Shown here: piece after piece, positions 23,594-40,032 of the stretch
Layout of the letters: every line of letters begins with the position of its first letter
How positions within the stretch are numbered: position 1 is the first letter of the stretch
Origin: Nitrospirota bacterium
Lineage (GTDB): Bacteria > Nitrospirota > Thermodesulfovibrionia > Thermodesulfovibrionales > Dissulfurispiraceae
DNA: 64,000 nucleotides
NCBI GenBank assembly: GCA_040754455.1
Contig: JBFMCP010000002.1
Location: 128,001 to 192,000, forward strand
Direction: 5' to 3'
Position numbers and translations under genes: made by a program
The notes under the pieces: generated by a model
Told to the model about the DNA's origin: nothing
The model's database searches: none
What the model saw: only the letters and a program-made list of their open reading frames with translations

Positions 23594-24219
23594 TCATCAA
23601 GACTGTGGTGGTGGGACCCCTTCAGGCGAACTGCATCATCATTGCGGATAAGGAATCCGGGAAGGCTATGGTGGTCGATCCCGGTGATGAGCCTGATAGA
23701 ATTCTGGATAGTATTAAAGAAAACAATTTAACCGTTGAATATATTGTCTGCACCCACGGCCACTTTGATCATGTGGGAGCGGTCCCCGAGCTTAAAAAAG
23801 AGACAGGAGCACCGGTGGTGATCCACAAGGATGAGTTGGTGATCTACAACGGTGCCAAAGATATGGCTGCCTTCTGGGGAGCTGAAATCGATCCCTTGCC
23901 GGAGCCGGATATCCTTGCAAAAGAGGGCGATATCCTTACCATCGGCACACTGCGCTTTGAGGTCTTTCATTCCCCCGGCCACAGCCCTGGCGGCATCTGT
24001 CTCTATCGGGAGGGGACGGTTATGACGGGAGATACCCTGTTTGCCGGGTCCATAGGGAGGACCGACTTCTACGGCGGCGATATCATAAAAATCAAAAAGT
24101 CTTTCCAGCGATTAATGGCGCTGCCCGATGCTACCAGAGTCTTCCCCGGCCACGGCCCTGCGACCACTATTGGCCGAGAGAAAAGGGAGAACATGTTTTC
24201 AGCAGAATTCCTTACATGA
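23590..24219 (+). CDS. MBL-fold hydrolase (glyoxalase II-like)
   Basis: THGHFDH, PGHSPG, GDTLF, PGHG. Confidence 0.92.
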   Translation: MIIKTVVVGPLQANCIIIADKESGKAMVVDPGDEPDRILDSIKENNLTVEYIVCTHGHFDHVGAVPELKKETGAPVVIHKDELVIYNGAKDMAAFWGAEIDPLPEPDILAKEGDILTIGTLRFEVFHSPGHSPGGICLYREGTVMTGDTLFAGSIGRTDFYGGDIIKIKKSFQRLMALPDATRVFPGHGPATTIGREKRENMFSAEFLT

Positions 24220-25943
24220 GACGTCGGATTACAAAAGTAAGAATCCAGGATACAGAATCCAGAATCCAGAATAAAAAACAGAGACAACAGAATCGCTGGC
24301 TTTACATCTTTCTCTTCTGGCTCCTGGCTCCCGGCATCTGGCTCCTGGCCTGTTCCGGCCAAAACACCTCTACTGATAACGCCCCCGGTAAAGGCACTGC
24401 TCCTCGGCCCGCTCTGAATGCCGCTCCGATTATTCTTTCCATCCTGCCGGTGGAGAGCGCGGGCGCTATGTATAAGCGATTCCTGCCGTTGAAGTATTAT
24501 CTTGAGCGGTCATTGAATGTGCCTGTTGTTATACGAATCGCCAAGGATTATGAGTCCGCCATCAACGAGCTGGGAAGCGGACAGGTCCATATGGCCTATC
24601 TTGACCCGGCTGCATACTGCGAAGTCAGAGCGCGCTATCGCGGCAAGGTCACTCCATTGGTAAGAGCGGTTGCAAAGGAGAACACATCATCGCGCAGCGT
24701 GCTTGTTGCAAAAAGCGGGACGGCGATCGAGAAGATCGTTGACGTGAGGGAAAAGCGACTTGCCTTCGGGAGCCGTCAGTCCTCATTCAGTTATCTTATA
24801 CCGCTCGCCATGCTGAATGATGTTGGTATCGGCATTGAGGACCTTGCTTCTGTCGACTATCTTGAGCAGGAGGACAGGGTTGCCCTGTCCGTCCTTGTCG
24901 GAAATCATGAGGTAGGGGCCATGAGCGAGCTGGTAGCGGCAAAGTATATCGACGACGGGTTGAGGATTATCAAACGGTCGGAGATTGTCCCTCAGTTTGT
25001 CCTCTGTTCCTCGATCGGCCTTTCACCGGAGCAGAGGAACGGGATTGTCAAGAACCTTACTTCGGCGCACGGCAGAGAAACCCTCTCGGCGATTGATAAA
25101 GATATGGAGTTTGTCGCTGCTGAGGACAGGGACTTTGATGTCATAAGGGTCATGATAAAGAATCTCACCGGAAAAAACTATATAGAGTATGGGCCGAAGA
25201 CGATCAAGGTTGCCGTGCTGCCTCTCTACTCGGCGGTAACGATATACAACAAGTATGATCCCCTCATGCGTTATCTTTCTCAGTTGACGGGCTATGAGTT
25301 CAAGCTGGTAATCCCGAAGGACTTTGATGACTTTGTCGGGACCGTCAAACGAAGGGCTGTTGACTTCTCCTATCAGAACCCCTATATTTTTGCGCTCATT
25401 GACCGCGAGGTCGATATAACCCCGCTCGTCACTACGGTCGATGAATACATGGAGGCGGGAGACCGGTTCAGGGGAGTGATTATAACCCGGAGTGATAGTC
25501 CTGTAAAGGATGTGAAAGAACTGAGAAACAAGAAAGTGCTCATTACCTCACCGAAGTCGGCGGGAGGTTATCTCTCGCAGCGGCTGTTTCTCCAGCAGAT
25601 GGGCATCGATACGGAACGCGATATGAAAATCATCGATGCAAAACGTCAGGAGAAGGTTATCCTGGGAGTCTACAAGGGTGAGGCCGACGCGGGCTTTGTT
25701 CGGGAATCCGCGTTGGATGTAGTAAAAGAGGAGTTCGATATGAAGAAGATTCGGGTACTGGCCAGGACCGAGCCGCTGCCTAACTGGCCCTTTGCACTCT
25801 GCAGAGAGCTCAATCCCGCCGTGGTGCAACAGGTGAAGCGTATCCTGACCGGTCTTGACAACCCGGAGATACTCGGGCCTGCGGGAATCAAGAGGTTCAA
25901 AGTTGCTAACGAGGCTGAATTCAACGTGCTCAAGAAATATTGA
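24216..25943 (+). CDS. Lipoprotein with two tandem PhnD/phosphonate-binding-type periplasmic domains
   Basis: LLAC lipobox; two copies of the pattern LP...PL..YL...(SSFSYL/SAGGYL)...D/E.V.L.V..G..E/D.G; no ABC permease or ATPase nearby. Confidence 0.8.
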   Translation: MRRRITKVRIQDTESRIQNKKQRQQNRWLYIFLFWLLAPGIWLLACSGQNTSTDNAPGKGTAPRPALNAAPIILSILPVESAGAMYKRFLPLKYYLERSLNVPVVIRIAKDYESAINELGSGQVHMAYLDPAAYCEVRARYRGKVTPLVRAVAKENTSSRSVLVAKSGTAIEKIVDVREKRLAFGSRQSSFSYLIPLAMLNDVGIGIEDLASVDYLEQEDRVALSVLVGNHEVGAMSELVAAKYIDDGLRIIKRSEIVPQFVLCSSIGLSPEQRNGIVKNLTSAHGRETLSAIDKDMEFVAAEDRDFDVIRVMIKNLTGKNYIEYGPKTIKVAVLPLYSAVTIYNKYDPLMRYLSQLTGYEFKLVIPKDFDDFVGTVKRRAVDFSYQNPYIFALIDREVDITPLVTTVDEYMEAGDRFRGVIITRSDSPVKDVKELRNKKVLITSPKSAGGYLSQRLFLQQMGIDTERDMKIIDAKRQEKVILGVYKGEADAGFVRESALDVVKEEFDMKKIRVLARTEPLPNWPFALCRELNPAVVQQVKRILTGLDNPEILGPAGIKRFKVANEAEFNVLKKY

Positions 25944-27592
25944 TGATGCGGTGCTCCGGATCAATACGATTGCGAAAAACAGTCAGGAATCTTTTCAGGA
26001 GGATGAGCCTTGTCAAAAAGTTCGCCACGGCGGTGGTCTTTCTCATCCTCGTTATCATGTTCATCTTCAGCTCTCTTATAATTACTCACCAGAGGGCAGC
26101 GCTGAAATCCGAGATGGACAGCAACGCCCTCGTCCTTGCCAAGAAACTTTCCAATGATGTGCTCGAACCGCTTATGATCATGGATCTGCTGAGGCTTGAT
26201 GAGCTCGTAAGGACGACCGCTCAGACACCCGCCTGTGTATATGCCGGCATTATCGCCAGAGACATGAGAATCGTTGCCCATACGAACCGCAAGCTGCTCG
26301 GACAGACGGTAAGCGGGATATCGTCGCAACAGCTCGCCGGCGCTTTTGAGCGCGGGAATGAATATACGCGGGATATTTCCGGTGAGGATGTGCGGGAAAT
26401 CATTATTCCGGTAAAGGTCGGGTATGAGGTTATGGGGGCAGTCGTTATCGGCTTTTCGAAGGATGCCATCAGAACGGTTATTGAAAACAACCTGAGCGGA
26501 CTGAAGAACTACCTGATCCTGATTTCCTTTGCCGTCACGATTGCGGGAATAGGCGGCGCCTACTGGCTTGCGCGGTTTCTTGCGATCCCGGTAAAAAAGC
26601 TCAAGGAGCAGATGGGACGTGTACAGGCGGGCGATCTGGATGTAGAGATTTATTCAGAGCACATTGTCGACTGCGCCGAGGTCCTCCGATGTGATACCAG
26701 GGAGTGTCCTGCCTATGGAAAAAAGCGGTGCTGGACTGTACCGGGAACGCTGTGCTTCGGATTGGTGCAGGGAGATGTGTCTGAAAAGATATGTGATTGC
26801 AGGAGATGTGTTGTCTATCGGAGTTCCTGCGGTGATGAAATCGGGGAACTCGTCGAGGTGTTCAACCAGATGGTTGAGCGGCTCAAGGATAATATCAAGG
26901 AACTGGAAGAGAGCAATAAGGAGAAGACCAGGATGGAGAAGCTTTCCGCCCTCGGTGAAATGGCGATGACCGTGGCCCATGAGATAAAGAATCCCCTGAA
27001 CGCCATTCGGGGGTCAGCCTCCTATCTTAAGGATAATTTTGAAGGGGAGATACTCAGGGAATTCCTCACGGTCATCGAGGAGGAAACGAAGCGGCTGAAT
27101 GAGATCGTCACCAGCATCCTCAGGTTCTCCAGGCCGACCCCTTTGAACCTGCAGGTCTCCGATCTGAACAAGGTGATCAGAGAGACCGTGGAGCTCATCA
27201 GGCAGGAGGCGGTGGAGAACAATGTCGAAGTGGTCGTGAATCTCGATGAGAGGATCCCGCTTTTCAGGTTCGATGCGCAGCAGTTTAAGCAGGCACTCCT
27301 CAATATTCTCGTCAACGCCCTTGAGACAACGAAGGCAGGAGATACGATAGGAATTGCCACCCAGCCCTTTGACTCCAGCGTACGCATTATGATAAAAGAT
27401 ACGGGAGCGGGTATTGCGAAGGAAATCATCTCCGAAATTTTCAAACCTTTCTTTACCACTAAAACCCGCGGCTCGGGTCTCGGCCTTGCCTGTGTCGAGC
27501 GGATTATCAAAGACCATAAAGGGGACATTACAGTCGTGAGTGAGGAGGGAAAGGGCACGGAGTTTACCATAACGCTGCCGCTTGGAAAATGA
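25940..27592 (+). CDS. Membrane sensor histidine kinase with Cys-rich insert in HAMP
   Basis: Two TM helices, HAMP, H-box AHEIKNPL, N box, DTGAGI, FFTTK..GSGLGL. Confidence 0.93.
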   Translation: MMMRCSGSIRLRKTVRNLFRRMSLVKKFATAVVFLILVIMFIFSSLIITHQRAALKSEMDSNALVLAKKLSNDVLEPLMIMDLLRLDELVRTTAQTPACVYAGIIARDMRIVAHTNRKLLGQTVSGISSQQLAGAFERGNEYTRDISGEDVREIIIPVKVGYEVMGAVVIGFSKDAIRTVIENNLSGLKNYLILISFAVTIAGIGGAYWLARFLAIPVKKLKEQMGRVQAGDLDVEIYSEHIVDCAEVLRCDTRECPAYGKKRCWTVPGTLCFGLVQGDVSEKICDCRRCVVYRSSCGDEIGELVEVFNQMVERLKDNIKELEESNKEKTRMEKLSALGEMAMTVAHEIKNPLNAIRGSASYLKDNFEGEILREFLTVIEEETKRLNEIVTSILRFSRPTPLNLQVSDLNKVIRETVELIRQEAVENNVEVVVNLDERIPLFRFDAQQFKQALLNILVNALETTKAGDTIGIATQPFDSSVRIMIKDTGAGIAKEIISEIFKPFFTTKTRGSGLGLACVERIIKDHKGDITVVSEEGKGTEFTITLPLGK

Positions 27593-28974
27593 ATATGGAT
27601 AAAGCTCAGGGGAACATATTGATCGTCGATGACGAGGCGAACATCCTCAAGGTGCTTTCGGCCATCCTCAAGAAAAACGGTTATGAGGTTGTGACCGCGC
27701 GTACCGCAGAAGAGGCGATGGAGAGGATTGCCAAGGCCGACTTTGATGCGATCATCACCGATTATAAGATGCCCGGAATGAGCGGCATGGAACTTCTGGA
27801 TCGTCTGAAGGAGAGGGATTACAAGACCCCCGTCATACTGCTCACCGCCTTCGGCACCATTGAGCGTGCAGTGGACGCCATGAGAAAAGGAGCCTTCAGT
27901 TACCTCGCGAAGCCGGTAAATCCCGATGAGCTGCTTACGGTTACCAGAGAGGCGGTTGAAAAGCATCGGTTGCTTGTTGAGAATATATCGCTCAAATCAC
28001 AGCTCAAAGAGCGCCACAGTTTCAAGAACATCATCGGCAAAAGCCATAGTATGCAGGATGTGTTCAATCTCATCGAGACGGTAGCCGGAAGTACTTCAAA
28101 TGTATTGATCACCGGCGAGAGCGGCACCGGGAAAGAGCTCGTGGCAAAGGCTATTCATTACGGGTCGCCGCGCGCGAACAACCCCTTCATTCCTATCGAT
28201 TGTGCGGCACTGCCCGAAGAGCTCCTCGAGAGTGAGCTCTTCGGACATGAACGGGGCTCCTTTACCGGAGCGTATGACCGGAAAGCGGGACAGATCGAGC
28301 TTGCCCACGGCGGCACCATCTTTCTCGATGAAATCGGCGAGCTGTCGTTGAATACGCAGAAGAAGTTTCTGCGTTTTCTCCAGGAGCGGGAGATTCTGAG
28401 GATCGGCGGAAAGAGCAGGATAAAGGTGGACGTGAGGATTATTGCTGCAACGAACCGGGACCTTGAGAAAGAGGTCGAGAAGGGCACCTTCAGGGGAGAT
28501 CTCTTCTACCGGCTCAATGTGGTGACGGTCGCCATACCCCCGCTCCGCGAACGCAGGGAGGACATTCCTCTCCTTGCCGGTCATTTTCTGAACAAGTTCA
28601 ACCAGACCAATAACAAAGCTATCGCCGCCATTGACAGTGAGGCGATGAGGGTCCTGATGGATTATGACTGGCCTGGCAATGTGCGGGAACTCGAGAATGT
28701 TATTGAGCGGGCAGTTGTCCTCTGTTCCACCGATGCCATTACCCTTAATTATCTGCCGAAATCGATTCGCGGTGACAGCCGTGCAATTGATCGGGGGAAC
28801 GGTGATGGATTGAACCTGCTCGAAACCGAAAAGAGGCTCATTGTCAGGGCGCTCGAGAAGACCTCATGGAACCAAACGAAGGCCGCGGGGGTCTTGGGAA
28901 TTTCGCGGAAACAGCTGAGAACAAAGATGAAACACCACGGGCTTCTTCTGGAAAATGGCGCTGATGATGAATAA
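27589..28974 (+). CDS. Sigma54-dependent response regulator (NtrC/AtoC family)
   Basis: REC domain, GESGTGKE, GSFTGA variant of GAFTGA, FLDEIGE, WPGNVREL, Fis-type HTH. Confidence 0.96.
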   Translation: MNMDKAQGNILIVDDEANILKVLSAILKKNGYEVVTARTAEEAMERIAKADFDAIITDYKMPGMSGMELLDRLKERDYKTPVILLTAFGTIERAVDAMRKGAFSYLAKPVNPDELLTVTREAVEKHRLLVENISLKSQLKERHSFKNIIGKSHSMQDVFNLIETVAGSTSNVLITGESGTGKELVAKAIHYGSPRANNPFIPIDCAALPEELLESELFGHERGSFTGAYDRKAGQIELAHGGTIFLDEIGELSLNTQKKFLRFLQEREILRIGGKSRIKVDVRIIAATNRDLEKEVEKGTFRGDLFYRLNVVTVAIPPLRERREDIPLLAGHFLNKFNQTNNKAIAAIDSEAMRVLMDYDWPGNVRELENVIERAVVLCSTDAITLNYLPKSIRGDSRAIDRGNGDGLNLLETEKRLIVRALEKTSWNQTKAAGVLGISRKQLRTKMKHHGLLLENGADDE

Positions 28975-29001
28975 TTTCAGAATACTCTTCGCTGCCGATA
29001 T

Positions 29002-29047
29002 TGTCCCAAATGGAACAGTTGCTCCTGTTGTTGTCCCGTTTGGGACA
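29002..29047. promoter_or_regulatory. Tandem palindromic enhancer (UAS) sites
   Basis: TGTCCCAAATGGAACA (29002-29017) and TGTCCCGTTTGGGACA (29032-29047), 30 bp apart, 85-130 bp upstream of a -24/-12 promoter. Confidence 0.75.
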
Positions 29048-29131: not shown

Positions 29132-29147
29132 TGGCATGTTTATTGCT
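29132..29147 (+). promoter_or_regulatory. Sigma54 -24/-12 promoter
   Basis: TGGCATGTTTATTGCT with exact GG-N10-GC spacing. Confidence 0.85.
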
Positions 29148-29308: not shown

Positions 29309-30616
29309 ATGAAACGTTTCTGGGTATCACTGGCCATCGCCCTGATGGCAACAGTCTTTATGATGTATCAAAATGGTGCTCTTGCCGAGAAACCGAAGGA
29401 TGCAAAGGCTCCTGCGGTTCAGGACATGAAGACGTCTGAAGCAAAGTCTGAAGCGAAACCTGAGGAAAAGAAAGACGAGCTGTCCGGCACCGTAACCGCT
29501 CAGATCGACAAGACGACGCTCAACAACGGCGGTACGATTACGGTTACCGGAACCGCCCCGGCAGGCAAGCCCGTGTATATTGAAGTATGGTCCGATAAAA
29601 AGGTACGTGCCTCCCGCTTCGACTCAGAAGTAGATAAGGATACGGGAAAGCGGCCGTATATCCTCTATATGACCTATGATATGCCCGCGTACTACAAAAT
29701 ATTTGTTCCGAAAGACCAGAAGGACACCCTCGTGAAGGTGAAAAAAGAGGGGAAAAAGTGGAGCTTTTCAAAAGCCCTCAAGGATGTGGGTGCTGATGCC
29801 GTTTATTCCGTACCGGCAAAAGCTAAAATCGACCGTTACCAGGCGACCCTGATGGGCAGCATCATCGGTTCCAGAGGGGAGCTGCTTCCTGCAATGGACG
29901 ATAAGGAAGGCAAGAAACGTTCCATGCAGCTCGTGAAGGCACGCTTCAGAGACGTGAACAAAGTGATGAGCCCTGATGTCGAGGTCAATCCCGACGGCAC
30001 GTTCAAGGCGGAGATAAAGATCCGCGAAGGCCTTGCACCGGGCAAATACACTCTGGTCGCTGCCGTCGATAAGAATACCAAGAGCCAGCCGATCACGTTC
30101 GAGAACAATATCGCGTTCCCGAACGTTTATCTCAGCAATGCGGGCACAAGCCTGAACCTCTTCGGCCCCTTCTTCCTGACGCTCGCCATCGCGATCTTCG
30201 GCGTGCTCATGGGGGCAGGCGGCGGGTTTATTATGAACCCCTTGCTGGTTTCCATCTGGCCCTTGCCCCACACCATCGTTGCAGGAACCGTTATGCCGAC
30301 CGTGCTCTTCTCCCAGGCGAGCGGTATCTATAATTATTCGAAGATCAAGTTCATCAGCTGGAAGCTCGGCGTTGCCATTGGCCTCGCCATGGTGGTGGGC
30401 GGTTTTATCGGCCCCAAGCTCACGGAGATGATCACCCTCGAGCAGTTCAAGTTTGTCTTCGGCTGGATACTGATTATCCTTGCAGGCTTGATGTTCTGGC
30501 AGACCACACCAGGGTATCTTGCCAAGAACAAGAAGGAGCAGGCGATTCTCAAAGAGTTCAAGAAAAAGGCCGAAGAAGCTGCGAAGGGCAAGACTGCCCC
30601 TGCTGAAGCGAAATAA
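29309..30616 (+). CDS. TSUP (TauE/SafE) transporter N-terminal half with large exported N-terminal domain
   Basis: Signal peptide, about 270 soluble residues, then GVLMGAGGGFIMNP and about 4 TM helices; GGAGG RBS. Confidence 0.82.
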   Translation: MKRFWVSLAIALMATVFMMYQNGALAEKPKDAKAPAVQDMKTSEAKSEAKPEEKKDELSGTVTAQIDKTTLNNGGTITVTGTAPAGKPVYIEVWSDKKVRASRFDSEVDKDTGKRPYILYMTYDMPAYYKIFVPKDQKDTLVKVKKEGKKWSFSKALKDVGADAVYSVPAKAKIDRYQATLMGSIIGSRGELLPAMDDKEGKKRSMQLVKARFRDVNKVMSPDVEVNPDGTFKAEIKIREGLAPGKYTLVAAVDKNTKSQPITFENNIAFPNVYLSNAGTSLNLFGPFFLTLAIAIFGVLMGAGGGFIMNPLLVSIWPLPHTIVAGTVMPTVLFSQASGIYNYSKIKFISWKLGVAIGLAMVVGGFIGPKLTEMITLEQFKFVFGWILIILAGLMFWQTTPGYLAKNKKEQAILKEFKKKAEEAAKGKTAPAEAK

Positions 30617-30628: not shown

Positions 30629-31018
30629 ATGACAGTAGAATTCTGGGGACACGAATTTAAAGTAAATATAGTGCTGGGATGCATCGGAGGATTTCTGATC
30701 GCGGTCGTTTCATCGATGTTCGGCTTCGGCGGCGGGCCGTTCATGGTACCGCTGATGACCGTCGGCCTCGGGCTTCCGATGTATGTTGTTGTAGGCAGCT
30801 CGTTGCTTGCCATTTTCTTCAACACGCTGATGGGCACCATGCGTCATTATCAGTTCGGGAACTTCGATCTGATCTTCTTCCTCATTATGTTCCCCGCAGC
30901 AATTCTGGGCGGTTTTATCGCACCGCAGATCGCAAAACGCGTCAGCCCGCTTGTGGTAAAGAGAGTTGCAGTTGCGGGATTGCTTCTCCTGGCACTAAAC
31001 CTGCTGGGAGTATATTAA
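30629..31018 (+). CDS. TSUP (TauE/SafE) transporter C-terminal half
   Basis: SSMFGFGGGPFMVP repeat motif, about 4 TM helices, own AAGGAGG RBS. Confidence 0.82.
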   Translation: MTVEFWGHEFKVNIVLGCIGGFLIAVVSSMFGFGGGPFMVPLMTVGLGLPMYVVVGSSLLAIFFNTLMGTMRHYQFGNFDLIFFLIMFPAAILGGFIAPQIAKRVSPLVVKRVAVAGLLLLALNLLGVY

Positions 31019-31085
31019 TTAAATTTAAGCGAATGGTTTTCAGGATTATCCTCGTGACTGTTTGAGGATAACACCTCAGGAGTAC

Positions 31086-31116
31086 GGGAGAGGAGGAATC
31101 CCCCCTCCTCTCTCCC
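31086..31116 (+). terminator. Intra-operon stem-loop
   Basis: GGGAGAGGAGG...CCTCCTCTCTCCC; no U tract. Confidence 0.45.
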
Positions 31117-31196
31117 ATACCCTAAGGAATGGGCGTCATCAACTTCGAAAGCAATATTCATTTACAATAAAGAAACGTTGTTTGTGGAGGGTGAAC

Positions 31197-33281
31197 ATGG
31201 GAGAAATTTCATCAGTATACAGCATGTGTGGCATGTGCGCAGTGCGCTGTCCCATCAGAGTTGAAGTAGAGAACGGGATCGTCAAGTGGATAGAGGGGAA
31301 CCCCCACGCAGCGGGGATAGAGGGCGCTCTTTGCGCCAAAGGCAGCGCGGGAATCGCTTTTGAGTATGATAGTGAGCGGCCTCAGTCGCCGATGATCAGA
31401 ATCGGCCCGAGGGGGTCGGGACAGTGGAAACGGGCGACCTGGGACGAGGCCCTTGAGTATATAGCTGAAAAGCTGAAAGCAGTAGTGGAAAAATACGGCG
31501 CGAGGGCTATTGCGCTCGCCGACAGGGGCGGTCCCTTTACGGACCTTACCAAGAGCTTCATCAAGGCGCTGGGCTCTCCCAACTACCTCGACCATGATGA
31601 TACGTGCGCCAAGAATGTGAATATGGCGGCCCAGACCCTTTTCGGCTACGGCCGCGGCGATCTCGGCTACGACATCGCCAACACGAAGCACCTCGTCCTG
31701 TTCGGCAGAAACATCTTCGAATCCCTCCAGGTAAAAGAGGTAAATAATGCTCTCGACGCCATGGAGAAAGGGGCGAAGATAACCTATATCGATGTCCGGG
31801 CCACCACCACCGCCTCCAAGGCGGACAAGTTCCTCATGATCAGGCCTGGCACCGACTATGCCTTTTGCCTCGGGCTCATCCATGTCATCCTCAAGGAAAA
31901 GCTCTACGATGCCGATTTCGTCAACAAGTATGTGGTGGGGCTCCAGGAGTTGGAGGCCTTTGTCGCCCCGTACACGCCCGAATGGGCGGAGCAGGAGACC
32001 GGTGTCCCCGCCTTCGAGATCGTCAACCTCGCCCGTGAAGTAAGCAGTGTGAAGCCGAAGGTGATCTTCCACGGCGGATGGATGCTCGCCCGGTATGTGG
32101 ATTCCTTCTATGCAAGCCGCTGCGCGTACATTCTCAATACGCTCATGGGCTCTATCGAAACAAAGGGTGGCATCGTGATCGCCAAAGGTGCGAAGGATGC
32201 GGGCAAGAAGGGGCTCAACTCTCTTGGCGCCAAGATCCCCGATCCGCAGGACAAAATATTCGATGCAGACCTGCCGGGCAAGTCTCTCGGTACCGGGCAC
32301 GTGATCAACCTCTACAAGGTCATCAAATCCGGTAAACCCTATCCGGTCAAGGCGTTCTTCGCTTATCGCTACGATCCTGTCGCCTCGCTCCCTGATCCGG
32401 ATGAGCAGAAAAATATCCTGGATAATCTCGACCTCCTCGTTTCCATCGATGTCAACTACAGCCAGACCGCATGGTATGCCGATGTGATTCTTCCCGAGGC
32501 GACCTACCTCGAGCGGTCGAATATCATCGCGGTCCAGAAGGGGCAGAAGCCCAACTTCCTCATGAGACGCCAGGCGGTCAAGCCCTATTACGACAGCAAG
32601 CCCGCCTGGGAAATCTTCAAGCTCATCGCGGAGAGGATGGGTGCGGGACAATATTTCCCTTATAACAGCATCGAGGAAATCTGGAACTACCAACTCGAGG
32701 GTACAGGGTATACCATTGAAGATTTCAAGGCAAAAGGTTTTGTGAGCCTCGCCAAAGACGCCATCTTCATGGACAGGAACGATATCAAGTTCACTACTCC
32801 TTCCGGCAAAATCGAGTTCGTGTCGAGCAAGCTGGAGAAGGCCGGCTTCAAATCCTTTGCTCCGTACAATAGCCCCAAGAAGCCTGAACCCGGATCTTTC
32901 CGGCTCACCTTCGGCAGGTCTCCGGCCCAGACCCATGCACAGTCCCAGAATAACCCCTACCTGAATGAGATAGTGCCGACCAACATTCTCTGGATAAACG
33001 AGAAAGAGGCGACCGCCCTCGGCATCAAGAACGGTGATATGGTGGAGGTAAGCGCAAACGGGTACTCAGGGACCATCAGGGCCTACGTTACGCCGTATAT
33101 TCATCCCGAGGCGGTCTTTATGTTCCACGGATTCGGCAACGAGATACCGCTCAAGACCCGCTCCTGCGGCAAAGGGCTCAGTGACACGAAGCTCGAAAGG
33201 GGCATCCTCGGAGTGGTGGATCCCGTGGGCGGCGGCGGCGCGTACAATGAGGCCATAGTAAAGGTCAGGAAGGCGAAATAA
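31197..33281 (+). CDS. Molybdopterin (bis-MGD) oxidoreductase catalytic subunit, Psr/Phs-like, no Tat signal
   Basis: FS0 motif CGMCAVRC...C immediately after the start, putative Mo-ligand Cys in DHDDTC, ADVILPEATYLER, C-terminal MGD domain; GGAGG RBS before ATG 31197. Confidence 0.88.
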   Translation: MGEISSVYSMCGMCAVRCPIRVEVENGIVKWIEGNPHAAGIEGALCAKGSAGIAFEYDSERPQSPMIRIGPRGSGQWKRATWDEALEYIAEKLKAVVEKYGARAIALADRGGPFTDLTKSFIKALGSPNYLDHDDTCAKNVNMAAQTLFGYGRGDLGYDIANTKHLVLFGRNIFESLQVKEVNNALDAMEKGAKITYIDVRATTTASKADKFLMIRPGTDYAFCLGLIHVILKEKLYDADFVNKYVVGLQELEAFVAPYTPEWAEQETGVPAFEIVNLAREVSSVKPKVIFHGGWMLARYVDSFYASRCAYILNTLMGSIETKGGIVIAKGAKDAGKKGLNSLGAKIPDPQDKIFDADLPGKSLGTGHVINLYKVIKSGKPYPVKAFFAYRYDPVASLPDPDEQKNILDNLDLLVSIDVNYSQTAWYADVILPEATYLERSNIIAVQKGQKPNFLMRRQAVKPYYDSKPAWEIFKLIAERMGAGQYFPYNSIEEIWNYQLEGTGYTIEDFKAKGFVSLAKDAIFMDRNDIKFTTPSGKIEFVSSKLEKAGFKSFAPYNSPKKPEPGSFRLTFGRSPAQTHAQSQNNPYLNEIVPTNILWINEKEATALGIKNGDMVEVSANGYSGTIRAYVTPYIHPEAVFMFHGFGNEIPLKTRSCGKGLSDTKLERGILGVVDPVGGGGAYNEAIVKVRKAK

Positions 33282-33804: not shown

Positions 33805-33814
33805 AGGACGGACT

Positions 33815-34606
33815 ATGATACACCTTACGATAGACGGCAGGCCGGTTGAGGTTGCAGCAGAGACAACGGCCCTCGAAGCGGCCCGCCAGGCGGGCATTGC
33901 TATCCCTACGCTCTGCTACCATCGAGCGCTCGGCCCCAACGGCGTCTGCAGGCTCTGCATCGTCGAAGTGGAAGGCCCCGGGCTGAACCGCACCATTGCC
34001 ACCTCTTGCAATCTCCGCGTTGCCGAAGGCCTCAGGATCGAGACAAACTCTCCGGTTATCCAGGATATGAGGAAAACCATCCTGGAGCTGCTTCTTTCCG
34101 GAATGGTCCCGACACCGGAGCTGCGGTCGCTGGCAAAGCAGGCAGGAGTGGGGAGAAGGAGATTCAAAGCAGAACCGGAGGACCAGTGTGCGCTCTGCGG
34201 CATCTGCATCAGAACCTGCCGCGATCGCATCGGGGCCGGTGCACTGGCCTTCGGGACTGCAGGAAAGAGCAAAAGTAAAGTAGCCGAATATGTGACACTC
34301 TCCAAAGAGGCCTGCATCGGCTGTGGGACCTGCGCGCAGGTCTGCCCCGTCGGCGCAATCACCATCAAGGATAAAGGCGCGGAGCGGAAGATACTCCTCT
34401 ACGGAAAAGAAGCGAACCGGCTCGCGCTCGTTGCCTGCGAATCCTGCGGGACTCCCTTTGCAACGGAGCGATTCATCGATTCTGTGCTTTCCCGTCTTTC
34501 CGGTGAGCTTGGCGCACAGGTAAAGAGGATATGTCCGGAATGCGCACGGCACTATTATGCAGCGACACTGGCGGAAGGATTTCCGGTCGATAACACTGCA
34601 CGGTGA
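33815..34606 (+). CDS. 2Fe-2S plus multi-4Fe-4S electron-transfer protein (like the NuoG/SfrA/FdhA N-terminus)
   Basis: IPTLC...GVCRLCIVEV...TSC, CALCGICIRTC, CIGCGTCAQVCP, additional CxxC pairs. Confidence 0.85.
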   Translation: MIHLTIDGRPVEVAAETTALEAARQAGIAIPTLCYHRALGPNGVCRLCIVEVEGPGLNRTIATSCNLRVAEGLRIETNSPVIQDMRKTILELLLSGMVPTPELRSLAKQAGVGRRRFKAEPEDQCALCGICIRTCRDRIGAGALAFGTAGKSKSKVAEYVTLSKEACIGCGTCAQVCPVGAITIKDKGAERKILLYGKEANRLALVACESCGTPFATERFIDSVLSRLSGELGAQVKRICPECARHYYAATLAEGFPVDNTAR

Positions 34607-34709: not shown

Positions 34710-36683
34710 ATGGCGGAAACAATCGTTTGTTACTGGAATAATAAATCCTGCGATGGAGCATCTCCCCTTAAGCACGGGAACGAGAATATTGCCGCCCTTA
34801 TCGGCTGGGGAGGTGTTCAGGTATTCGACCCCGACGTCGATATCATCGACCTCTGCGCTGCTTACGCTGCAGCGGTAAGAAATAATTCCTGCGGACAGTG
34901 TATTCCCTGTAGGATAGGAACAAGGATAATCGCCGATATTTTTGAGGGCATAAAAAAAGGAGAGGGCAAGCTGAACGATCTCGATACTGTAAGGACGCTC
35001 TCTGAGACCGTTGCCCGGACTTCGATGTGCGAAATAGGACGGAGCTCTCCTGAAGTGTTCCTGTATCTCCTCGATCACTATAAAGATGTTTTTCAAAAGG
35101 CAATAAAAGGCAAGAGGAAGGGAAAGAAAAAATACGTCTATCGCTCGATTAGGACGGCGCCCTGTATGCAGGCGTGTCCCATGCATCTGGATATCCCGAA
35201 ATACATCGAGGCGATCAAGTTCGGCAGATTCCGGGAATCTCTGGATATCATACGCCAGAAGCTCCCGCTGCCGGGAGTCGTCGGCAGAGTCTGTGTGCGG
35301 CCCTGTGAATTCAACTGCCGGAGAGGGCTCATCGATGAACCTATTCAGATAAAACATCTGAAGCGGTTCGTTGCCGATTACGACATCGAAAGTGTACGAG
35401 CTCCTGCATGCAAGAGACCTGAGGACAAAGTATTGTATGAGCTTTCGCGAGCCGAGGGTCCTCAGCTGCAGCGGCAGAAACCCAACGGCATCAAGATCGC
35501 CATTGTCGGTGCCGGTCCTTCGGGCCTCACCTGCGCCCATTTTCTCGCCTATCAGGGCTATGAAGTAACCATCTATGAGCTGCTCTCTGAACCGGGCGGC
35601 ATGGCTGCCGTCGGCATTCCTGATTACCGTTTGCCGCGAAGCATCCTGCGCGGTGAAATCGAAGCGATAGAGAAGCTGGGGGTGAAGATCGTTTACGGCA
35701 AAGGCCTCGGTACTCATTTTACCCTTGATGATCTTGAGAAAGAGGGGTATAAGGCACTATTCATCGGCATGGGCTGCCACTGTCATAAAAAGATGGACAT
35801 AGAGGGAGAAGACAAGGGCTATTACGGTTACATACCGGGCGTCTATTTCCTGCGCAATGTGAACCTCGGCCTCCTCGACGAGATACCAAAGGGGAAAAAG
35901 ATGGTGGTTGTCGGCGGCGGTAATGTCGCCATCGATTGTGTGCGCAGCGCGTTCAGAGTGGGATTCGAAGATTCCCATATCGTCTACCGGAGATCCCGTA
36001 AAGAGATGCCTGCCGATGCCGTCGAGATCAGTGATGCAGAAGCAGAAGGGGTGCAGTTCCATTTTTTGACAGCGCCGAAAAGGATCATCGGAGAAAACGG
36101 GAAAGTGGTGGGCCTCGAATGCCTCAGGATGGAACTGGGCGAGCCCGATGCCTCGGGCAGGAGGAGGCCGGTCGAGGTCCCCGGCTCTGAGTTTGTCATC
36201 GAGGCGGACGTCATCGTCGCCGCTATCGGACAAGAGGGAGATTTCTCGTGCATGTGCAACCTGCCGGGAGTCGAGGTGACAAAGAAAGGGGCTATTGTTG
36301 TCGATGAGAATCTGATGACCACCAGAAAAGGCGTCTTTGCCGGAGGCGATTGCATTACAGGCCCGGACGTTCTTATCAGGGCCTGCGCTCACGGGAGGCG
36401 CGTGGCATTGAAGATCGATATGTTCCTGAAAGAGGGAAAGATCGTACCCCTCGATGAAGAGAACGACGAAGCGTTTTTGAACCAGCTCAAGGTGTTCGAT
36501 CCCTCAGAAAAGGTGAACATCCCCGGAGGAGTAAAACGTATTCCTATCAAACACGAGCCGCCGGTAGAACGGAAGAAGGATTTCAGAGAGGTGGATAAAG
36601 GATTCACTGTGCAGGAGGCCATGGCCGAGGCCGAACGATGCCTGAGATGCTACCGCGTCGTCACTTATGCCACTATTAAATAA
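34710..36683 (+). CDS. SfrB/GltD-like NADPH-dependent Fe-S flavoprotein
   Basis: NuoF-type SCGQCIPCRIG...SMC, APCMQACP/GRVCVRPCEFNCRR, GAGPSG (FAD), GGGNVAID and YRRS (NADPH-type), ERCLRC tail. Confidence 0.88.
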   Translation: MAETIVCYWNNKSCDGASPLKHGNENIAALIGWGGVQVFDPDVDIIDLCAAYAAAVRNNSCGQCIPCRIGTRIIADIFEGIKKGEGKLNDLDTVRTLSETVARTSMCEIGRSSPEVFLYLLDHYKDVFQKAIKGKRKGKKKYVYRSIRTAPCMQACPMHLDIPKYIEAIKFGRFRESLDIIRQKLPLPGVVGRVCVRPCEFNCRRGLIDEPIQIKHLKRFVADYDIESVRAPACKRPEDKVLYELSRAEGPQLQRQKPNGIKIAIVGAGPSGLTCAHFLAYQGYEVTIYELLSEPGGMAAVGIPDYRLPRSILRGEIEAIEKLGVKIVYGKGLGTHFTLDDLEKEGYKALFIGMGCHCHKKMDIEGEDKGYYGYIPGVYFLRNVNLGLLDEIPKGKKMVVVGGGNVAIDCVRSAFRVGFEDSHIVYRRSRKEMPADAVEISDAEAEGVQFHFLTAPKRIIGENGKVVGLECLRMELGEPDASGRRRPVEVPGSEFVIEADVIVAAIGQEGDFSCMCNLPGVEVTKKGAIVVDENLMTTRKGVFAGGDCITGPDVLIRACAHGRRVALKIDMFLKEGKIVPLDEENDEAFLNQLKVFDPSEKVNIPGGVKRIPIKHEPPVERKKDFREVDKGFTVQEAMAEAERCLRCYRVVTYATIK

Positions 36684-36849
36684 ATAAAAGGCATCGAGTC
36701 CTTCAGTCGTTGTACTATTAAAGCAAGCGTCATTGGACATTGGTCATTAGCTATTGGTCGCTTATCAGTTGTCAGTTACTTTTACCAATGACCATTGACT
36801 ATCGACCAGTGATCGATGACTTCCTTTTGTCGAGATCGAGGATGCCTGA

Positions 36850-39800
36850 ATGGAACGGTTTCTGAATATCTTCTCAAAAAAGCGGCGATGCCTCCCCGTC
36901 GCCGATGCCCGGAGCAGTATTGCGGCGAAGTACAAATTCTTCAAGAGCCTTCTCAAACACAATCACACCGCCCTCAAGGCCATTGCCGATCTCGAACAGC
37001 TGTACTACAGCGGGAAGCCTTTCAGTCTTTCTTCCATACGTATTAATTACGAGGAGTTGCTTGAAGCAGTGACCGGCGTTATTCATTCTCTCCAGGCGCT
37101 GTCGGGGAAGGATATGGAGCCACTGGCAGAGGTCGCCGGGTGCATCGATAGAGAGCTCTTCAAGAACTTCAATCCGAAATGCGCCATCACCATAAAAGAT
37201 TTTGTCCTTCCCTTTGAAGAGATTACTCCCGAAATGAAAAAAATGGTAGGAGCGAAGGCCGCCAACCTGGCGGTGATAAAGAACGTGCTCGGGCTCCCCG
37301 TGCCGCAGGGGTTTGCCGTCACCGCCTATGCGTTTGAACACTTCATTGAAGAGAACAGGCTCCTCCGCCACATCAAAGAGGAATTGTCGCACATCTCCTC
37401 CGATGCCCCTGAGACCATCGAACGGGCAAGCGGCAGATTGAGAGAGATGGTGCTCAACGGGAAGGTGCCGGCTTCACTTTCTGCTGAGATCCTCAAGGCC
37501 TATGAGGCGATCGAGCAGAAATTGCACAGGGGAGTGCGCATTGCAATGAGGAGCAGCGCCGTTGGAGAGGATACCGAAGCAACCTTTGCAGGCCAGTACG
37601 AGACCGTGCTCAATGTGAAAAAAGAGAATATCATTGATGCCTACAAGACCGTTCTGGCGAGCAAATATTCCGCACGGGCGATCGCCTACCGGCTCCAGTA
37701 CGGGCTGGATGACCGCGAGACCCCCATGTGCGTGATCGGCATCGAGATGATCGATGCGACGTCGAGCGGCGTGCTCTATTCCGTTGATCCCGCGCTGCGG
37801 CGCTCCTGCCCGGTGAAGATCAATTCCCTCTGGGGCGTGGGAGAGCATCTTGTGGACGGCAGCGCCTCTCCCGATGTCTTTATCATCGACCGCATCGACA
37901 AGCGCATTGTCGAGAAGCATGTTGCACGGAAAGGATCGAGGATGATCAACCGGCGAGAGGGAGGAACCATGATCGAACAGGTCCCCGAGAGCGAGCGGCA
38001 GCGTTCCTCGCTCGACGATGCGAAGGCATTAGAGCTCGCCCATTACGGGTTGCTCCTGGAGGAGTTCTTCGAGAGCCCCCAGGACGTGGAGTGGGCCCTT
38101 GACAGCAATAACGACCTTTTCATCCTTCAGTCCAGGCCTCTGAACCTTCCTGAAATCACCGCCGAGGAGTCCGTACCACGCGACTACCCTGATCATCCTG
38201 TGCTTCTCTCTCAGGGCAGGGCGGCGGCGTCGGGGATTGCGACAGGGAGGGTGTTCATCGTGGAGCATGACGATGATCTCAAAAGAATTCCCCCTGATGC
38301 CATACTGGTAGCGCGGACCGCTTCGCCGGAATATGCGAAGGCCATCGGGAGGATCAGAGGTATTATAACCGACATCGGAAGCGTTACCAGTCATATGTCC
38401 TCCGTAGCCCGGGAATTCGGCATTCCCGCAATCGTGGATGCGGGTAACGCCACAGCGGTGCTGCCGAACGGACGGCTTATTACCATGTGGGCCGACACGA
38501 CGAGAGTGTACGATGGAGTGGTTGAATCACTGGTCAGAGAGATGAAGCCGGCACGAAAGCTTATCTTCGACAGCCCGCTCCACCGCCGCATGCGGAGAAT
38601 TCTCGACAAGATCGCTCCCTTGAACCTCACCGACCCTGAAGCGCCCACCTTTACCCCCGAAGGGTGTCAGACCTTCCATGACATCATCCGGTACACCCAT
38701 GAATATGCCATGCGGGAGATGTTCGGACTTTCGGAAGATACGGGTGAGACGGGGCGGTCGGTGAAACTTACGACCAGGCTTCCCCTCAATCTGCGGATGA
38801 TCGACCTGGGCGGAGGGCTCAGGGAGGGTCTGACCAGCTGTGATACGGTTACGCCTGATTGTATCGCATCGACCCCGATGAGGGCGGTCTGGAAAGGCTT
38901 TACGCATCCCGGCGTCAACTGGGCTGGCACGATGAGTTTTGACAGGAGCAAACTCTCCGGTCTCCTTGCGGCGGCAGCTGCTTCGGAATTCGGCGACACA
39001 GGTCCTGGAGAGAGCTATGCCATCCTGTCACGCGATTATCTGAACCTCAGCGTGCGCTTTGCCTATCACTTTGCCACGATCGACACGCTCTGCAGCGACA
39101 AGAGCACCCAGAACTATATCTCTCTCCAGTTTTCCGGGGGCGCCGGGAGCTACTACGGACGCTCGCTCCGTATCCAGCTGATCGGCACGGTGCTCGAGAG
39201 GCTCGGCTTCAAGGTGACGCTCAAGGGCGACCTCATCGAAGCGTTTATCGCACGTTATGACCGTCAGGCGATCGAGGAAAAGCTCGACCTGATGGGCAGG
39301 CTGCTTGCATCGAGCCGCCTGCTCGACATGGTCCTCTCGAACCAGGAGGAGATCGACTTCTATGCCGCTGCATTCTTCAGCGGCAACTACGACTTCCTCA
39401 CGAAGGGAAAGGAGGACGAATTCCCCGGCTTCTATGTCCGCGGGGGGTATTGGAAACGTCTCGTCGAAGAGGGCCACCCCTGTTGTCTGCAGGACGGTTC
39501 CCGCTGGGGCCGGAGAGTATCTTCTGAGTTCTCGGGACTCATGGGAAAGGTCATCGGCAACACATACCGGGAGTTTCTCGATACAATCGAAGCCTACTAC
39601 TATTTCCCTCTCCTGATTATGAAGGATATGGAGTTCTCCCAAGGCGCCATAACTGCCGGGATAAAGCCGATGCGCGGCAATATCGACCGGGCGGGCGGGA
39701 TCGCCTTTGGCATCAGGGACACGGAAAATTACTTCGTGCTCAGGACGAACTCTCTCGAGGGCAACATCGTGCTCTTCGAATTTGTAGAGGGAAGAAGGGT

Positions 39801-40032
39801 GCTTCTGTTCAGTGTAACAAAGAGGATAGAGAACAACCAGTGGCATCTTCTCAAGGCTGAGCTCACCGAGGATTCCATAAAAGGGTACTATAACGATGAT
39901 CTGGTCATGGAATATCCTCTCGATCAACCAATCAGAGGGTTTATCGGCCTCTGGACAAAATCCGACTCGGTCATCTGTTTTAAGGACCTGGTGATCGAGA
40001 CCGGAGGCGGTCGGAGGACAATCGCCTTTTGA
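36850..40032 (+). CDS. PEP-synthase/PPDK-like protein: ATP-grasp, phospho-His swivel domain, non-canonical C-terminus
   Basis: VGAKAANL, MRSSAVGED...FAGQYETVLNV, PQDVEWA...ILQSRPL, GSVTSHMSSVAREFGIP. Confidence 0.85.
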   Translation: MERFLNIFSKKRRCLPVADARSSIAAKYKFFKSLLKHNHTALKAIADLEQLYYSGKPFSLSSIRINYEELLEAVTGVIHSLQALSGKDMEPLAEVAGCIDRELFKNFNPKCAITIKDFVLPFEEITPEMKKMVGAKAANLAVIKNVLGLPVPQGFAVTAYAFEHFIEENRLLRHIKEELSHISSDAPETIERASGRLREMVLNGKVPASLSAEILKAYEAIEQKLHRGVRIAMRSSAVGEDTEATFAGQYETVLNVKKENIIDAYKTVLASKYSARAIAYRLQYGLDDRETPMCVIGIEMIDATSSGVLYSVDPALRRSCPVKINSLWGVGEHLVDGSASPDVFIIDRIDKRIVEKHVARKGSRMINRREGGTMIEQVPESERQRSSLDDAKALELAHYGLLLEEFFESPQDVEWALDSNNDLFILQSRPLNLPEITAEESVPRDYPDHPVLLSQGRAAASGIATGRVFIVEHDDDLKRIPPDAILVARTASPEYAKAIGRIRGIITDIGSVTSHMSSVAREFGIPAIVDAGNATAVLPNGRLITMWADTTRVYDGVVESLVREMKPARKLIFDSPLHRRMRRILDKIAPLNLTDPEAPTFTPEGCQTFHDIIRYTHEYAMREMFGLSEDTGETGRSVKLTTRLPLNLRMIDLGGGLREGLTSCDTVTPDCIASTPMRAVWKGFTHPGVNWAGTMSFDRSKLSGLLAAAAASEFGDTGPGESYAILSRDYLNLSVRFAYHFATIDTLCSDKSTQNYISLQFSGGAGSYYGRSLRIQLIGTVLERLGFKVTLKGDLIEAFIARYDRQAIEEKLDLMGRLLASSRLLDMVLSNQEEIDFYAAAFFSGNYDFLTKGKEDEFPGFYVRGGYWKRLVEEGHPCCLQDGSRWGRRVSSEFSGLMGKVIGNTYREFLDTIEAYYYFPLLIMKDMEFSQGAITAGIKPMRGNIDRAGGIAFGIRDTENYFVLRTNSLEGNIVLFEFVEGRRVLLFSVTKRIENNQWHLLKAELTEDSIKGYYNDDLVMEYPLDQPIRGFIGLWTKSDSVICFKDLVIETGGGRRTIAF

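Follow-up and report, generated by a model that had tools for sequence, protein, structure and literature searches.

A 64,000-nucleotide stretch of a Nitrospirota genome (Dissulfurispiraceae; GenBank assembly GCA_040754455.1, contig JBFMCP010000002.1, positions 128,001 to 192,000 of the forward strand; the whole stretch is called the window below) carries, at positions 24216-40032, a locus in which a molybdoenzyme of the Psr/Phs type is combined with its own sensing genes, a split TSUP transporter and an NADPH-type flavoprotein. The best explanation that we can give for this locus is an inducible system for the sensing, uptake and NADPH-driven cleavage of thiosulfate. Thiosulfate cleavage is the function with the best support, and we put it forward tentatively, with a confidence a little short of even. 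The locus itself is real and coherent. The initial annotation, drawn up from the sequence alone, had listed ten genes here, and all ten are present, co-directional on the plus strand, each with the domains named for it (open reading frames (ORFs), Pfam and NCBIfam; Table 1).

In the mechanism that we propose, an external anion would be detected in the periplasm by a tandem PhnD-type binding protein together with an sCache histidine kinase. The phosphorylated NtrC-type regulator would then bind two TGTCCC-N4-GGRACA sites and open a sigma-54 promoter, and the operon would first make a two-piece TSUP permease, with a periplasmic beta-sandwich region in its N half, that takes up the anion. Inside the cell, a cytoplasmic catalytic subunit A without a twin-arginine (Tat) signal and a four-cluster Fe-S subunit B would exchange electrons, through a HoxU-like protein, with a GltD/NfnI-type NAD(P)H flavoprotein. 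The reaction would be the NADPH-driven reductive cleavage of thiosulfate to sulfite and sulfide, the sulfite going on to DsrAB (reduction) or to AprAB/Sat (oxidation, in disproportionation). In relatives where A and B are linked to Nuo subunits, the transfer of electrons from menaquinol to thiosulfate could be powered by the proton motive force.

The catalytic subunit and its predicted electron-transfer partners

By its sequence, subunit A is a Psr/Phs-type molybdopterin protein of the PsrA/PhsA/SrrA lineage of MopB. The best NCBIfam model is PhsA (538.9 bits, followed by Fdh-alpha with 273.7 and DmsA with 260) and the best solved relative is PsrA of Thermus thermophilus (PDB 2vpw_A, E 2.3e-119, 402.9 bits), the next solved match being acetylene hydratase (E 3e-58, 200.9 bits). 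The Pfam domains follow each other in the order Molybdop_Fe4S4, Molybdopterin and Molydop_binding (E 4.3e-12, 5.8e-47 and 7.8e-16). The assignment to this type made in the initial annotation thus stands, and the identities that would have contradicted it, namely formate, nitrate or arsenate reductase, were rejected on the NCBIfam and PDB scores. The gene begins with an ATG at 31197 behind a GGAGG, and the protein starts with MGEISSVYSMCGMC, directly at its first Fe-S motif (FS0), as had been claimed. Residue 3 is matched in the alignment with residue 36 of Thermus PsrA, so the Tat leader is absent altogether. Other MopB genes of this genome that were read carry RRDFLK leaders, the copy on contig 7 excepted.

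The relatives compared here are a non-random sample of loci (the best 80 of 660 confirmed matches, representing 73 distinct loci, plus 20 loci from a scan of the order and that of the window), and the counts refer to 82 non-redundant loci. In all 82 members the alignment runs from the N-terminus, with the start at FS0, and in 81 the in-frame stretch up to the previous stop is free of an RR motif. The sole match (L063) lies upstream of its own ATG with no hydrophobic stretch following and is, by eye, not a Tat signal. The same test was positive for all six Tat-bearing paralogues from the same order, which begin MSxxRR(D/E)F(L/I)K. Each of the six is followed by a B subunit and a protein of 311-384 amino acids (aa), the latter located between A and B in L132, and they would be classical periplasmic PsrABC. 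A quick maximum-likelihood tree separates them from the Tat-less proteins with an SH-aLRT value of 100 and a branch length of 1.18. Subunit A belongs, then, to a distinct and widespread Tat-less clade. A match with at least 50% identity is found in 43 of 201 genomes of the order (the next class of matches is at 33-39%), and a scan of species genomes gave relatives with 49-77% identity in Nitrospirota, many Desulfobacterota, Myxococcota, Bacillota, Acidobacteriota and a Sulfurirhabdus, with a match in an estimated 1,500 or so stretches. The hosts are overwhelmingly sulfur-cycling taxa.

The FS0 cysteines (C11, C14, C18 and C46) are present in 82 of 82 members, and Cys137 aligns in 81 of them to Cys173 of PsrA, which we take to be the Mo ligand. 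One relative (L048, on the same contig as L073) has an in-frame TGA in the column of Cys137; its enzyme is probably a selenocysteine variant, as would suit a residue that binds the metal. SelB is encoded in the window at 46318-48222. On contig 17 of the same genome (1955-5122) a Tat-bearing MopB gene takes the form of two ORFs (201 and 837 aa) on the same strand, beside genes for an Fe-S subunit and NrfD; the break resembles the in-frame stops of selenocysteine formate dehydrogenases.

What varies across the clade is the set of genes found next to A and B. By counts that are mostly tblastn best hits, a GltD-type flavoprotein (scored as a GltD match downstream) is found in 32 of the 82 loci, or 31 of the 70 with at least 3 kb of downstream sequence, and 30 of these 32 also have a match to the 2Fe-2S protein. 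A complex I core of at least three Nuo subunits, lacking NuoEFG, takes this place in 19 loci (18 of the 70), NuoE and NuoF with a HoxU-like protein in seven (all within the 70) and NuoD and NuoI only in two (again both within the 70), while no partner was recognised in 22 (12 of the 70). Pfam checks of the partner sets in three loci (L050, L038 and L069) gave NuoB, D, I, A, C, H, J, K and N in a complete genome of the Thermodesulfovibrio type, where the B gene overlaps nuoB, a CBS-NuoE-NuoF-HoxU set in one relative and, in the Sulfurirhabdus (L069), a further kind of partner made of an Fe-S protein and a PadH/NirB-type NADH flavoprotein. The partner type changes at least 23 times on the tree, and the seven-row clade that includes the window (starred on the tree) already mixes four Nuo, two GltD and one NuoEF loci. 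Gene order shows, in other words, a conserved A+B pair with seemingly interchangeable pyridine-nucleotide modules or a complex I core. The proposal that the enzyme uses NAD(P)H instead of quinone is for this reason kept for the variant in the window, but not for the family, as in 19 of the 82 loci the complex I core would link A and B to quinone. On a Desulfobacterota contig (L077, 10001-15347) the A+B pair occurs twice in tandem (A with 59% and 51% identity to that of the window), followed by a GltD-type module.

In the window, the genes for A, B, the 2Fe-2S protein and the flavoprotein follow one another on a single strand at distances of 10-103 bases. Subunit B, present near A in 75 of 82 loci, resembles DmsB (NCBIfam, 149.7 bits, under the cut-off) and the PsrB chain 2vpw_B (E 3.5e-24), and the best PDB match of the 2Fe-2S protein, over its full length, is 9mqx_A, a "NuoG-like protein" (E 3.9e-42). 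The flavoprotein has the two 4Fe-4S motifs (Fer4_20) and the Pyr_redox_2 FAD/NAD(P)H fold of the GltD/NfnI-L type. The closest solved structures are the NADP(H)-binding GltD-like parts of 9bov_A, NfnA 9n5u_A and 8oh5_C, and NfnI-L (5jca_L, E 1.1e-97); GltD matches with E 9.8e-55. A complex model of B with the 2Fe-2S protein scored 0.80, against 0.00 for the best of three controls. On this score, 116 of 157 solved complexes and 2 of 215 mismatched pairs pass the mark; three runs share at least 82% of the contacts and the pLDDT of the partner is at least 83. The model supports a contact between B and the 2Fe-2S protein, and we propose that the latter is the bridge from B to the flavoprotein. The association of the flavoprotein with the molybdoenzyme is strengthened by the recurrence of the GltD-type module beside A and B in other phyla, so that the predicted four-protein architecture has the support of both conserved gene order and the complex model.

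A membrane anchor does not seem to be part of this variant. ORFs and Pfam gave no NrfD-type or cytochrome b gene within the locus, in agreement with what had been noted before. The five NrfD genes elsewhere in the genome are each near an Fe-S subunit match of their own, and a hidden anchor among them was rejected to the extent that gene order can tell. The genome has a single Nuo-type cluster (contig 27), with NuoE-, NuoF- and NuoG-like matches inside it, and a second set of weak NuoD/NuoN matches on contig 23.

Predicted sensing and uptake, and the neighbouring genes

The gene and site anatomy of the sensing part can be observed directly. The binding protein has an N-terminal signal peptide that ends in a lipobox-like LLAC and matches the phosphate/phosphite/phosphonate family TIGR01098 with 226 bits, above the cut-off of 112. 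The second PhnD repeat also matches the sensor domain of TtrS (NCBIfam, E 7.8e-16). Full-length tandem matches with at least 45% identity are found in nine of the 82 loci, that of the window included, beside matches to the kinase and the regulator, and the tandem protein is a probable co-sensor for the kinase. The regulator resembles AtoC (NCBIfam, 508 bits, under the cut-off) and shows what is expected of an NtrC-type sigma-54 two-component system, that is, receiver, AAA+ and HTH_8 domains, a -24/-12 promoter and upstream sites. The upstream activator sites and promoter reported in the initial annotation were recovered as two palindromes and one exact promoter match lying between the regulator and transporter genes. 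TGTCCC-N4-GGRACA has these two matches and no others in the 64 kb, with 0.01 expected, and TGGCAY-N5-TTGCW has three matches in the window against 0.13 expected. The promoter is located 85 bases 3' of the second palindrome and 162 bases 5' of the transporter ATG; the two other exact matches are at 54649-54664 (minus strand) and 63845-63860 (plus strand).

The same palindrome was found in 13 of 138 loci compared. In the nine where it could be placed it is upstream of a universal stress protein (usp)/TSUP gene or of the binding-protein gene, Thermodesulfovibrio included, where the kinase and regulator genes are not adjacent. This conservation speaks for the proposed system, and the sigma-54 regulon that it suggests could mark this metabolism in genomes. 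A second tandem PhnD/kinase/sigma-54 regulator triad is found on contig 4 of the same genome (104000-116000, L135), with 25-48% identity to that of the window, upstream of a Tat-bearing MopB protein of 847 aa and an Fe-S subunit; sensing of the same design seems here to govern a periplasmic molybdoenzyme too.

The split nature of the transporter was also borne out, the two genes encoding the N and C halves of the TauE profile. Together they cover positions 2-114 and 127-237 of the 237 of the TauE/SafE profile (PF01925), a full-length permease, but one made of two polypeptides encoded 12 bases apart. The split is kept in all 30 loci with both halves, and the pair adjoins A and B in 30 of the 82 loci. 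The N-half gene starts at 29309, and its product consists of a signal or anchor helix, a periplasmic beta-sandwich region of ca. 220 residues and the first half of the permease. Residues ca. 60-280 have a pLDDT above 90 in the AlphaFold model and are mainly strands; Foldseek against the PDB gave this region generic beta-sandwich matches only, with query-normalised TM-scores below 0.25. Orthologues of the N half are 53-81% identical. A close homologue (at least 60% identity) of a single PhnD-type binding protein is found in nine of the 82 loci, beside the TSUP genes where mapped, and a universal stress protein match (at least 50% identity) in ten. The binding proteins and the external sensor argue for the uptake of an outside anion, presumably by the TSUP permease, and a TSUP permease working together with periplasmic binding proteins is suggested. 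Between the TSUP C half and the molybdoenzyme gene there is a gap of 178 bases (31019-31196), which is where several relatives have a gene for a single-domain PhnD binding protein. A terminator-like hairpin spans 30986-31010, and another, strong one (GGGAGAGGAGG...CCTCCTCTCTCCC) can be made out by eye near 31085-31120.

Table 1. Features of the locus, with positions in the window.
Feature	Positions	Strand	Evidence and remarks
GloB/ETHE1-like metallo-beta-lactamase (MBL)-fold protein	23560..24219	+	Pfam Lactamase_B, E 6.8e-36; overlaps start of binding-protein gene
Tandem PhnD-type solute-binding protein, lipoprotein-like, predicted periplasmic	24216..25943	+	Two PF12974 stretches, E 1.9e-101
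Membrane histidine kinase	25940..27592	+	Pfam sCache_3_2, HAMP, HisKA, HATPase; one N-terminal hydrophobic stretch
NtrC/AtoC-type sigma-54-dependent response regulator	27589..28974	+	Pfam Response_reg, Sigma54_activat, HTH_8
Two upstream activator sites, TGTCCC-N4-GGRACA	29002-29017, 29032-29047	+	Palindrome search
Sigma-54 -24/-12 promoter, TGGCATGTTTATTGCT	29132..29147	+	Exact match to TGGCAY-N5-TTGCW
TSUP N half, 444 aa	29309..30616	+	Pfam TauE, residues 297-415 = profile positions 2-114 of 237
TSUP C half	30629..31018	+	Pfam TauE, profile positions 127-237 of 237
Catalytic subunit A with Mo/W-bis(pyranopterin guanine dinucleotide), Psr/Phs type, 694 aa	31197..33281	+	NCBIfam, PDB, FS0 motif
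Four-cluster Fe-S subunit B, PsrB/DmsB type, 169 aa	33295..33804	+	Pfam Fer4_11
HoxU/NuoG-N-terminus-like protein, one 2Fe-2S and several 4Fe-4S motifs	33815..34606	+	Pfam Fer2_4 and Fer4
Flavoprotein, NuoF-type 4Fe-4S fused to GltD/NfnI-L-type FAD-NAD(P)H domain	34710..36683	+	Pfam NADH_4Fe-4S, Fer4_20, Pyr_redox_2
Phosphoenolpyruvate (PEP)-synthase-like dikinase, 1060 aa	36850..40032	+	Pfam PPDK_N, PEP-utilizers only

The genes at both ends of the locus have no role in the proposed mechanism. The MBL-fold protein is a conserved upstream neighbour, with homologues of 66-69% identity adjoining the system in L036, L037, L040/L060, L058 and L061; its best NCBIfam models, GloB and the dioxygenase part of Blh, are both far below the cut-off. 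The dikinase-like protein combines ATP-grasp and swivelling-His domains with a C-terminal half of ca. 500 residues, for which no PDB match was better than E 0.13 and Atlas pointed only weakly, with scores of 0.79 at most, to clusters of lectin-like beta-sandwiches. A Pps-like match (33-63% identity) is found in 11 of the 82 loci. A low-molecular-weight (LMW)-phosphatase/ArsC-type domain is fused to the dikinase-like protein of the Sulfurirhabdus (L069, 7107-10910), and a gene of this type directly precedes the dikinase-like gene in a Nitrospirota relative (L046, 5102-5572); the protein of the window is without this domain. Its last 35 residues (39925-40029) are 66% identical to a stretch on contig 21 of the same genome (35957-36061), located ca. 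400 bases from another PhnD-type binding-protein gene.

The wider setting is one of dissimilatory sulfur genes: sat and aprBA are found at 6643-10445, ca. 21-24 kb upstream of the molybdoenzyme gene, the window also holds qmoABC and a membrane pyrophosphatase, and dsrAB is present in the same genome. The initial annotation had the enzyme supplying sulfite to this Apr/Sat block. The block is nearby, as described, and a functional link to it is conjectural.

Substrate, energetics and alternative readings

Very probably the clade is the same family as the cytoplasmic PhsAB-like proteins already in the literature, an orthology suggested by length, lack of a Tat signal, gene order and taxon. In Thermodesulfovibrio sp. 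N1 (THER_0567-0568), a Psr/Phs-family A+B pair was found linked to NuoABCDHIJKLMN without NuoEFG, and a proton transfer coupled to the redox chemistry of sulfur compounds was suggested (Frank et al., 2016; PMC5165239). [quoted passage not shown] In Dissulfuribacter thermophilus (2026 proteome; PMC13490349), a Tat-less, PhsC-less PhsAB-like pair (DITHS69_2027-2028) is among the proteins most increased on thiosulfate. When thiosulfate was disproportionated its members rose by log2 2.45 and 3.51, and those of a split TauE pair by 1.79 and 1.56. That study proposes a cytoplasmic thiosulfate cleavage and calls for biochemistry and for a search for the membrane association of these proteins. The idea of a cytoplasmic PhsAB-like thiosulfate reductase is, therefore, already in print, and of the suggestions in the initial annotation that of thiosulfate as the substrate is favoured by this proteomics of apparent relatives.

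NAD(P)H has a potential of ca. -320 mV, the S0/HS- couple of ca. -270 mV and the sulfate/sulfite couple of -516 mV. Published values are -402 mV for thiosulfate/sulfite plus sulfide, -74 mV for menaquinone, +198 mV for tetrathionate and +139 mV for arsenate (PMC13490349). All the partners described above work at or below the level of NAD(P)H, which argues for a substrate couple of low potential, near or below that of NAD(P)H. At standard potentials NAD(P)H (-320 mV) is a poor donor for thiosulfate (-402 mV) and would need low sulfite; by our own estimate the NADPH-driven cleavage would be feasible if DsrAB or AprAB keeps sulfite low.

This energetic shortfall weighs against thiosulfate cleavage, and it is not the only point to do so. 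Apart from the family likeness, the choice of substrate draws on the proteomics of organisms whose orthologues we infer, and in one of them, Desulfolithobacter, PhsA-1 was only slightly enriched under thiosulfate disproportionation compared with sulfate reduction (PMC9751629). Subunit A scores below the cut-off of the PhsA equivalog (NF012032; 538.9 against 694). The residue aligned to PsrA His145 is Arg in 82 of 82 clade members (Arg110 in the window) and that aligned to Arg332 is Trp in 77 and Tyr in five (Trp295 in the window), whereas the Tat-bearing paralogues have His and Arg in six of six. Both PsrA residues presumably line the active site, and if this is right the chemistry of the clade has been remodelled and may differ from that of the classical Psr/Phs enzymes. 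Other invariant residues specific to the clade are His133, Arg171, Asn172, Arg391 and His636. On the uptake side, the TauE family is named for export and the binding protein passes the cut-off of a phosphate/phosphite/phosphonate family. Finally, the sample behind the partner counts was not drawn at random and most of the counting used tblastn best hits, and a like assembly has been solved (chains A and E of 9mqx match the 2Fe-2S protein and B), so that the result of the complex model may reflect likeness.

With the same architecture, the substrate might be sulfane sulfur and the enzyme a cytoplasmic NAD(P)H polysulfide, persulfide or elemental-sulfur reductase. The best solved relative of A is a polysulfide reductase, the S0/HS- couple (ca. 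-270 mV) suits NAD(P)H better than thiosulfate does, the conserved GloB/ETHE1-like MBL neighbour belongs to a family that includes persulfide dioxygenases, and relatives occur in elemental-sulfur disproportionators, e.g., Dissulfurispiraceae and Desulfocapsa. However, PhnD-type binding proteins and a TSUP permease would be expected for an XO3-type anion more than for polysulfide, no member of the clade keeps the PsrA-type His/Arg pair, and the proteomic induction reported was on thiosulfate (PMC13490349); we regard a sulfane substrate as unlikely. The direction might also be the opposite one, with a cytoplasmic low-potential oxyanion dehydrogenase, most plausibly oxidizing sulfite to sulfate, that would pass electrons to NAD(P)+ here and, in relatives, to quinone via a proton-pumping complex I core. 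It would then be the as yet unidentified sulfite oxidoreductase of disproportionators. None of the partner modules accepts electrons at a level above that of NAD(P)H, a complex I core is normally fed by a low-potential donor, and the sulfate/sulfite couple, at -516 mV, would drive both routes. Besides, the transporter family is named for sulfite, and the conserved R110, R171, R391, H133 and H636 gained by the clade might suit an oxyanion site. Against it, we know of no oxo-transfer enzyme in the Psr/Phs lineage other than selenite reductase, which is reductive. The cytoplasm-facing SoeA groups with bacterial SreA in another MopB lineage, apart from PsrA/PhsA/SrrA (Wells et al., 2023; PMC10100899), and the Dissulfuribacter pair was lower on sulfite and H2 than on thiosulfate (PMC13490349). 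On balance, an oxidative enzyme also appears improbable to us.

Less probable still is another anion, be it tetrathionate or trithionate, selenite, arsenate or phosphite. It is true that PhnD-type domains of TtrS sense tetrathionate and that the second repeat matches the TtrS model, that the binding protein passes a phosphite/phosphonate subfamily cut-off, that the ArsC/LMW-phosphatase-type domain accompanies the dikinase in L046 and L069, and that the selenite reductase SrrA is in the same MopB lineage (PMC10100899). But tetrathionate and arsenate, with their positive potentials, would need no complex I core or wiring at the NAD(P)H level, and the hosts are the sulfur-cycling taxa mentioned above. 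Presumed family members, as judged from the orthology proposed here, were detected on sulfate, thiosulfate or sulfite, and the parts of those studies consulted, media recipes excepted, mention no added Se, As or phosphite. The remaining alternative, that A and B use another soluble carrier, e.g., ferredoxin, and that the 2Fe-2S protein, flavoprotein and dikinase belong to some other pathway, seems to us very improbable indeed. No recognised partner was found in 12 of the 70 loci with enough downstream sequence, a relative of the same genus (L036) has other genes between B and the 2Fe-2S gene, and the complex model could have passed by its likeness to solved assemblies. Nevertheless, a GltD-, NuoEF- or Nuo-type module follows A and B in 56 of these 70 loci, in several phyla, the genes of the window are closely spaced on one strand, and none of the controls came near the score of the complex model.

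Next to the preferred reading of NADPH-driven thiosulfate cleavage, there is a broader one, in which A and B are a plug-in module for low-potential sulfur oxyanions that has been moved repeatedly among an NADPH flavoprotein, NADH modules and a complex I core without NuoEFG. Taken as a whole, with all its parts, we consider it doubtful. If true, the Nuo-linked form would be the device, long postulated, by which thiosulfate cleavage is coupled to the proton motive force in disproportionation. Electrons would be transported in reverse from menaquinol or, in the opposite direction, the reaction would be an energy-conserving oxidation. The soluble form of the window would be the version of this device open to direct assay, and the substitution of Arg110 and Trp295 for His and Arg would be the sign of a chemistry unlike that of the periplasmic Psr/Phs enzymes. 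The splitting of thiosulfate and the electron balance in sulfate reducers and disproportionators have been argued from activities and proteomes, without a purified enzyme. The question of what the PhsAB-like proteins attach to finds an answer in gene order, that is, NAD(P)H modules or a complex I core. As the form in the window is predicted to be soluble and made of four subunits, NAD(P)H-linked assays, ligand-binding tests of the PhnD-type proteins and structural work are all practical.

Comparison with known systems

The classical PsrABC (Thermus, 2vpw) and PhsABC (Salmonella) share with the enzyme of the window the domain order of A, FS0, the cysteine Mo ligand and a four-cluster B. In contrast to them, the window has no Tat signal and no NrfD-type C subunit, and the enzyme would be wired to NAD(P)H and not to quinol. 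Arg and Trp occupy the positions of PsrA His145 and Arg332, the score is under the PhsA cut-off, and identity to the Tat-bearing PsrA paralogues of the same order is ca. 35%. Much closer are the cytoplasmic PhsAB-like proteins discussed above, also Tat-less and without C, with A and B of 694 and 169 aa here against 701 and 168 aa in GF1_30490/GF1_30500. The A-B-NuoA/B/C order of the published loci matches that of the Nuo-linked relatives found in this work. However, those described so far have either no partner or a complex I core, whereas the window has the 2Fe-2S protein and the GltD-type flavoprotein and adds the sensor triad, the sigma-54 promoter, the split TSUP and the dikinase. The catalytic kind is, then, known and biochemically uncharacterised, and the form in the window would differ from it in the NADPH-type wiring. 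A search of the literature, which did not cover subscription journals, found no description of the GltD/NADPH-linked four-subunit form, of the link to TSUP and binding proteins or of the regulon. As far as the literature searched goes, the soluble design with its NADPH wiring, the exchange of partners, the split TSUP, which may work with binding proteins, and the conserved sigma-54 regulon seem not to have been described before.

A similar function, with a different enzyme, has been proposed in Thermotoga maritima, where the NAD(P)H-dependent polysulfide/thiosulfate reductase is not known to contain molybdenum. It is a flavoprotein for which a cytoplasmic NAD(P)H reduction of polysulfide or thiosulfate was proposed, and it appears to be of an unrelated type, tied to archaeal NAD(P)H-dependent enzymes (PMC9431562). 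The combination of a HoxU-like 2Fe-2S part, a GltD-like NADP(H) part and a MopB fold is, for its part, found in NfnABC (9n5u chain A) and in the fusions 8oh5 chain C and 9bov chain A, deposited as "formate dehydrogenase-O, major subunit" and "molybdopterin oxidoreductase", respectively. The first of these fusions we take to be the Stn transhydrogenase, and SfrAB of Geobacter has a similar 2Fe-2S and GltD-like NADP(H) module. In NfnABC, 8oh5 and 9bov the parts are fused and the MopB is of the formate-dehydrogenase type or cofactor-less, whereas in the window they are separate proteins that would serve a Psr/Phs-type pair via a PsrB-type subunit.

SoeABC is another cytoplasm-facing MopB enzyme without a Tat signal that acts on a sulfur oxyanion, but it is much larger and has an NrfD-type anchor. 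It also falls in a different lineage, bSreA/SoeA, and not in the PsrA/PhsA/SrrA lineage of A (PMC10100899). Among the solved structures, 7z0s_B matches subunit B. The logic of the Nuo-linked relatives is like that of formate hydrogenlyase, in which a cytoplasmic MopB protein and a four-cluster subunit sit on NuoB/C/D/I/H-type subunits. They differ from it in that their NuoD-type subunit matches Complex1_49kDa and their catalytic subunit is of the Psr/Phs type, while the variant in the window has this same catalytic type and does without the membrane module.

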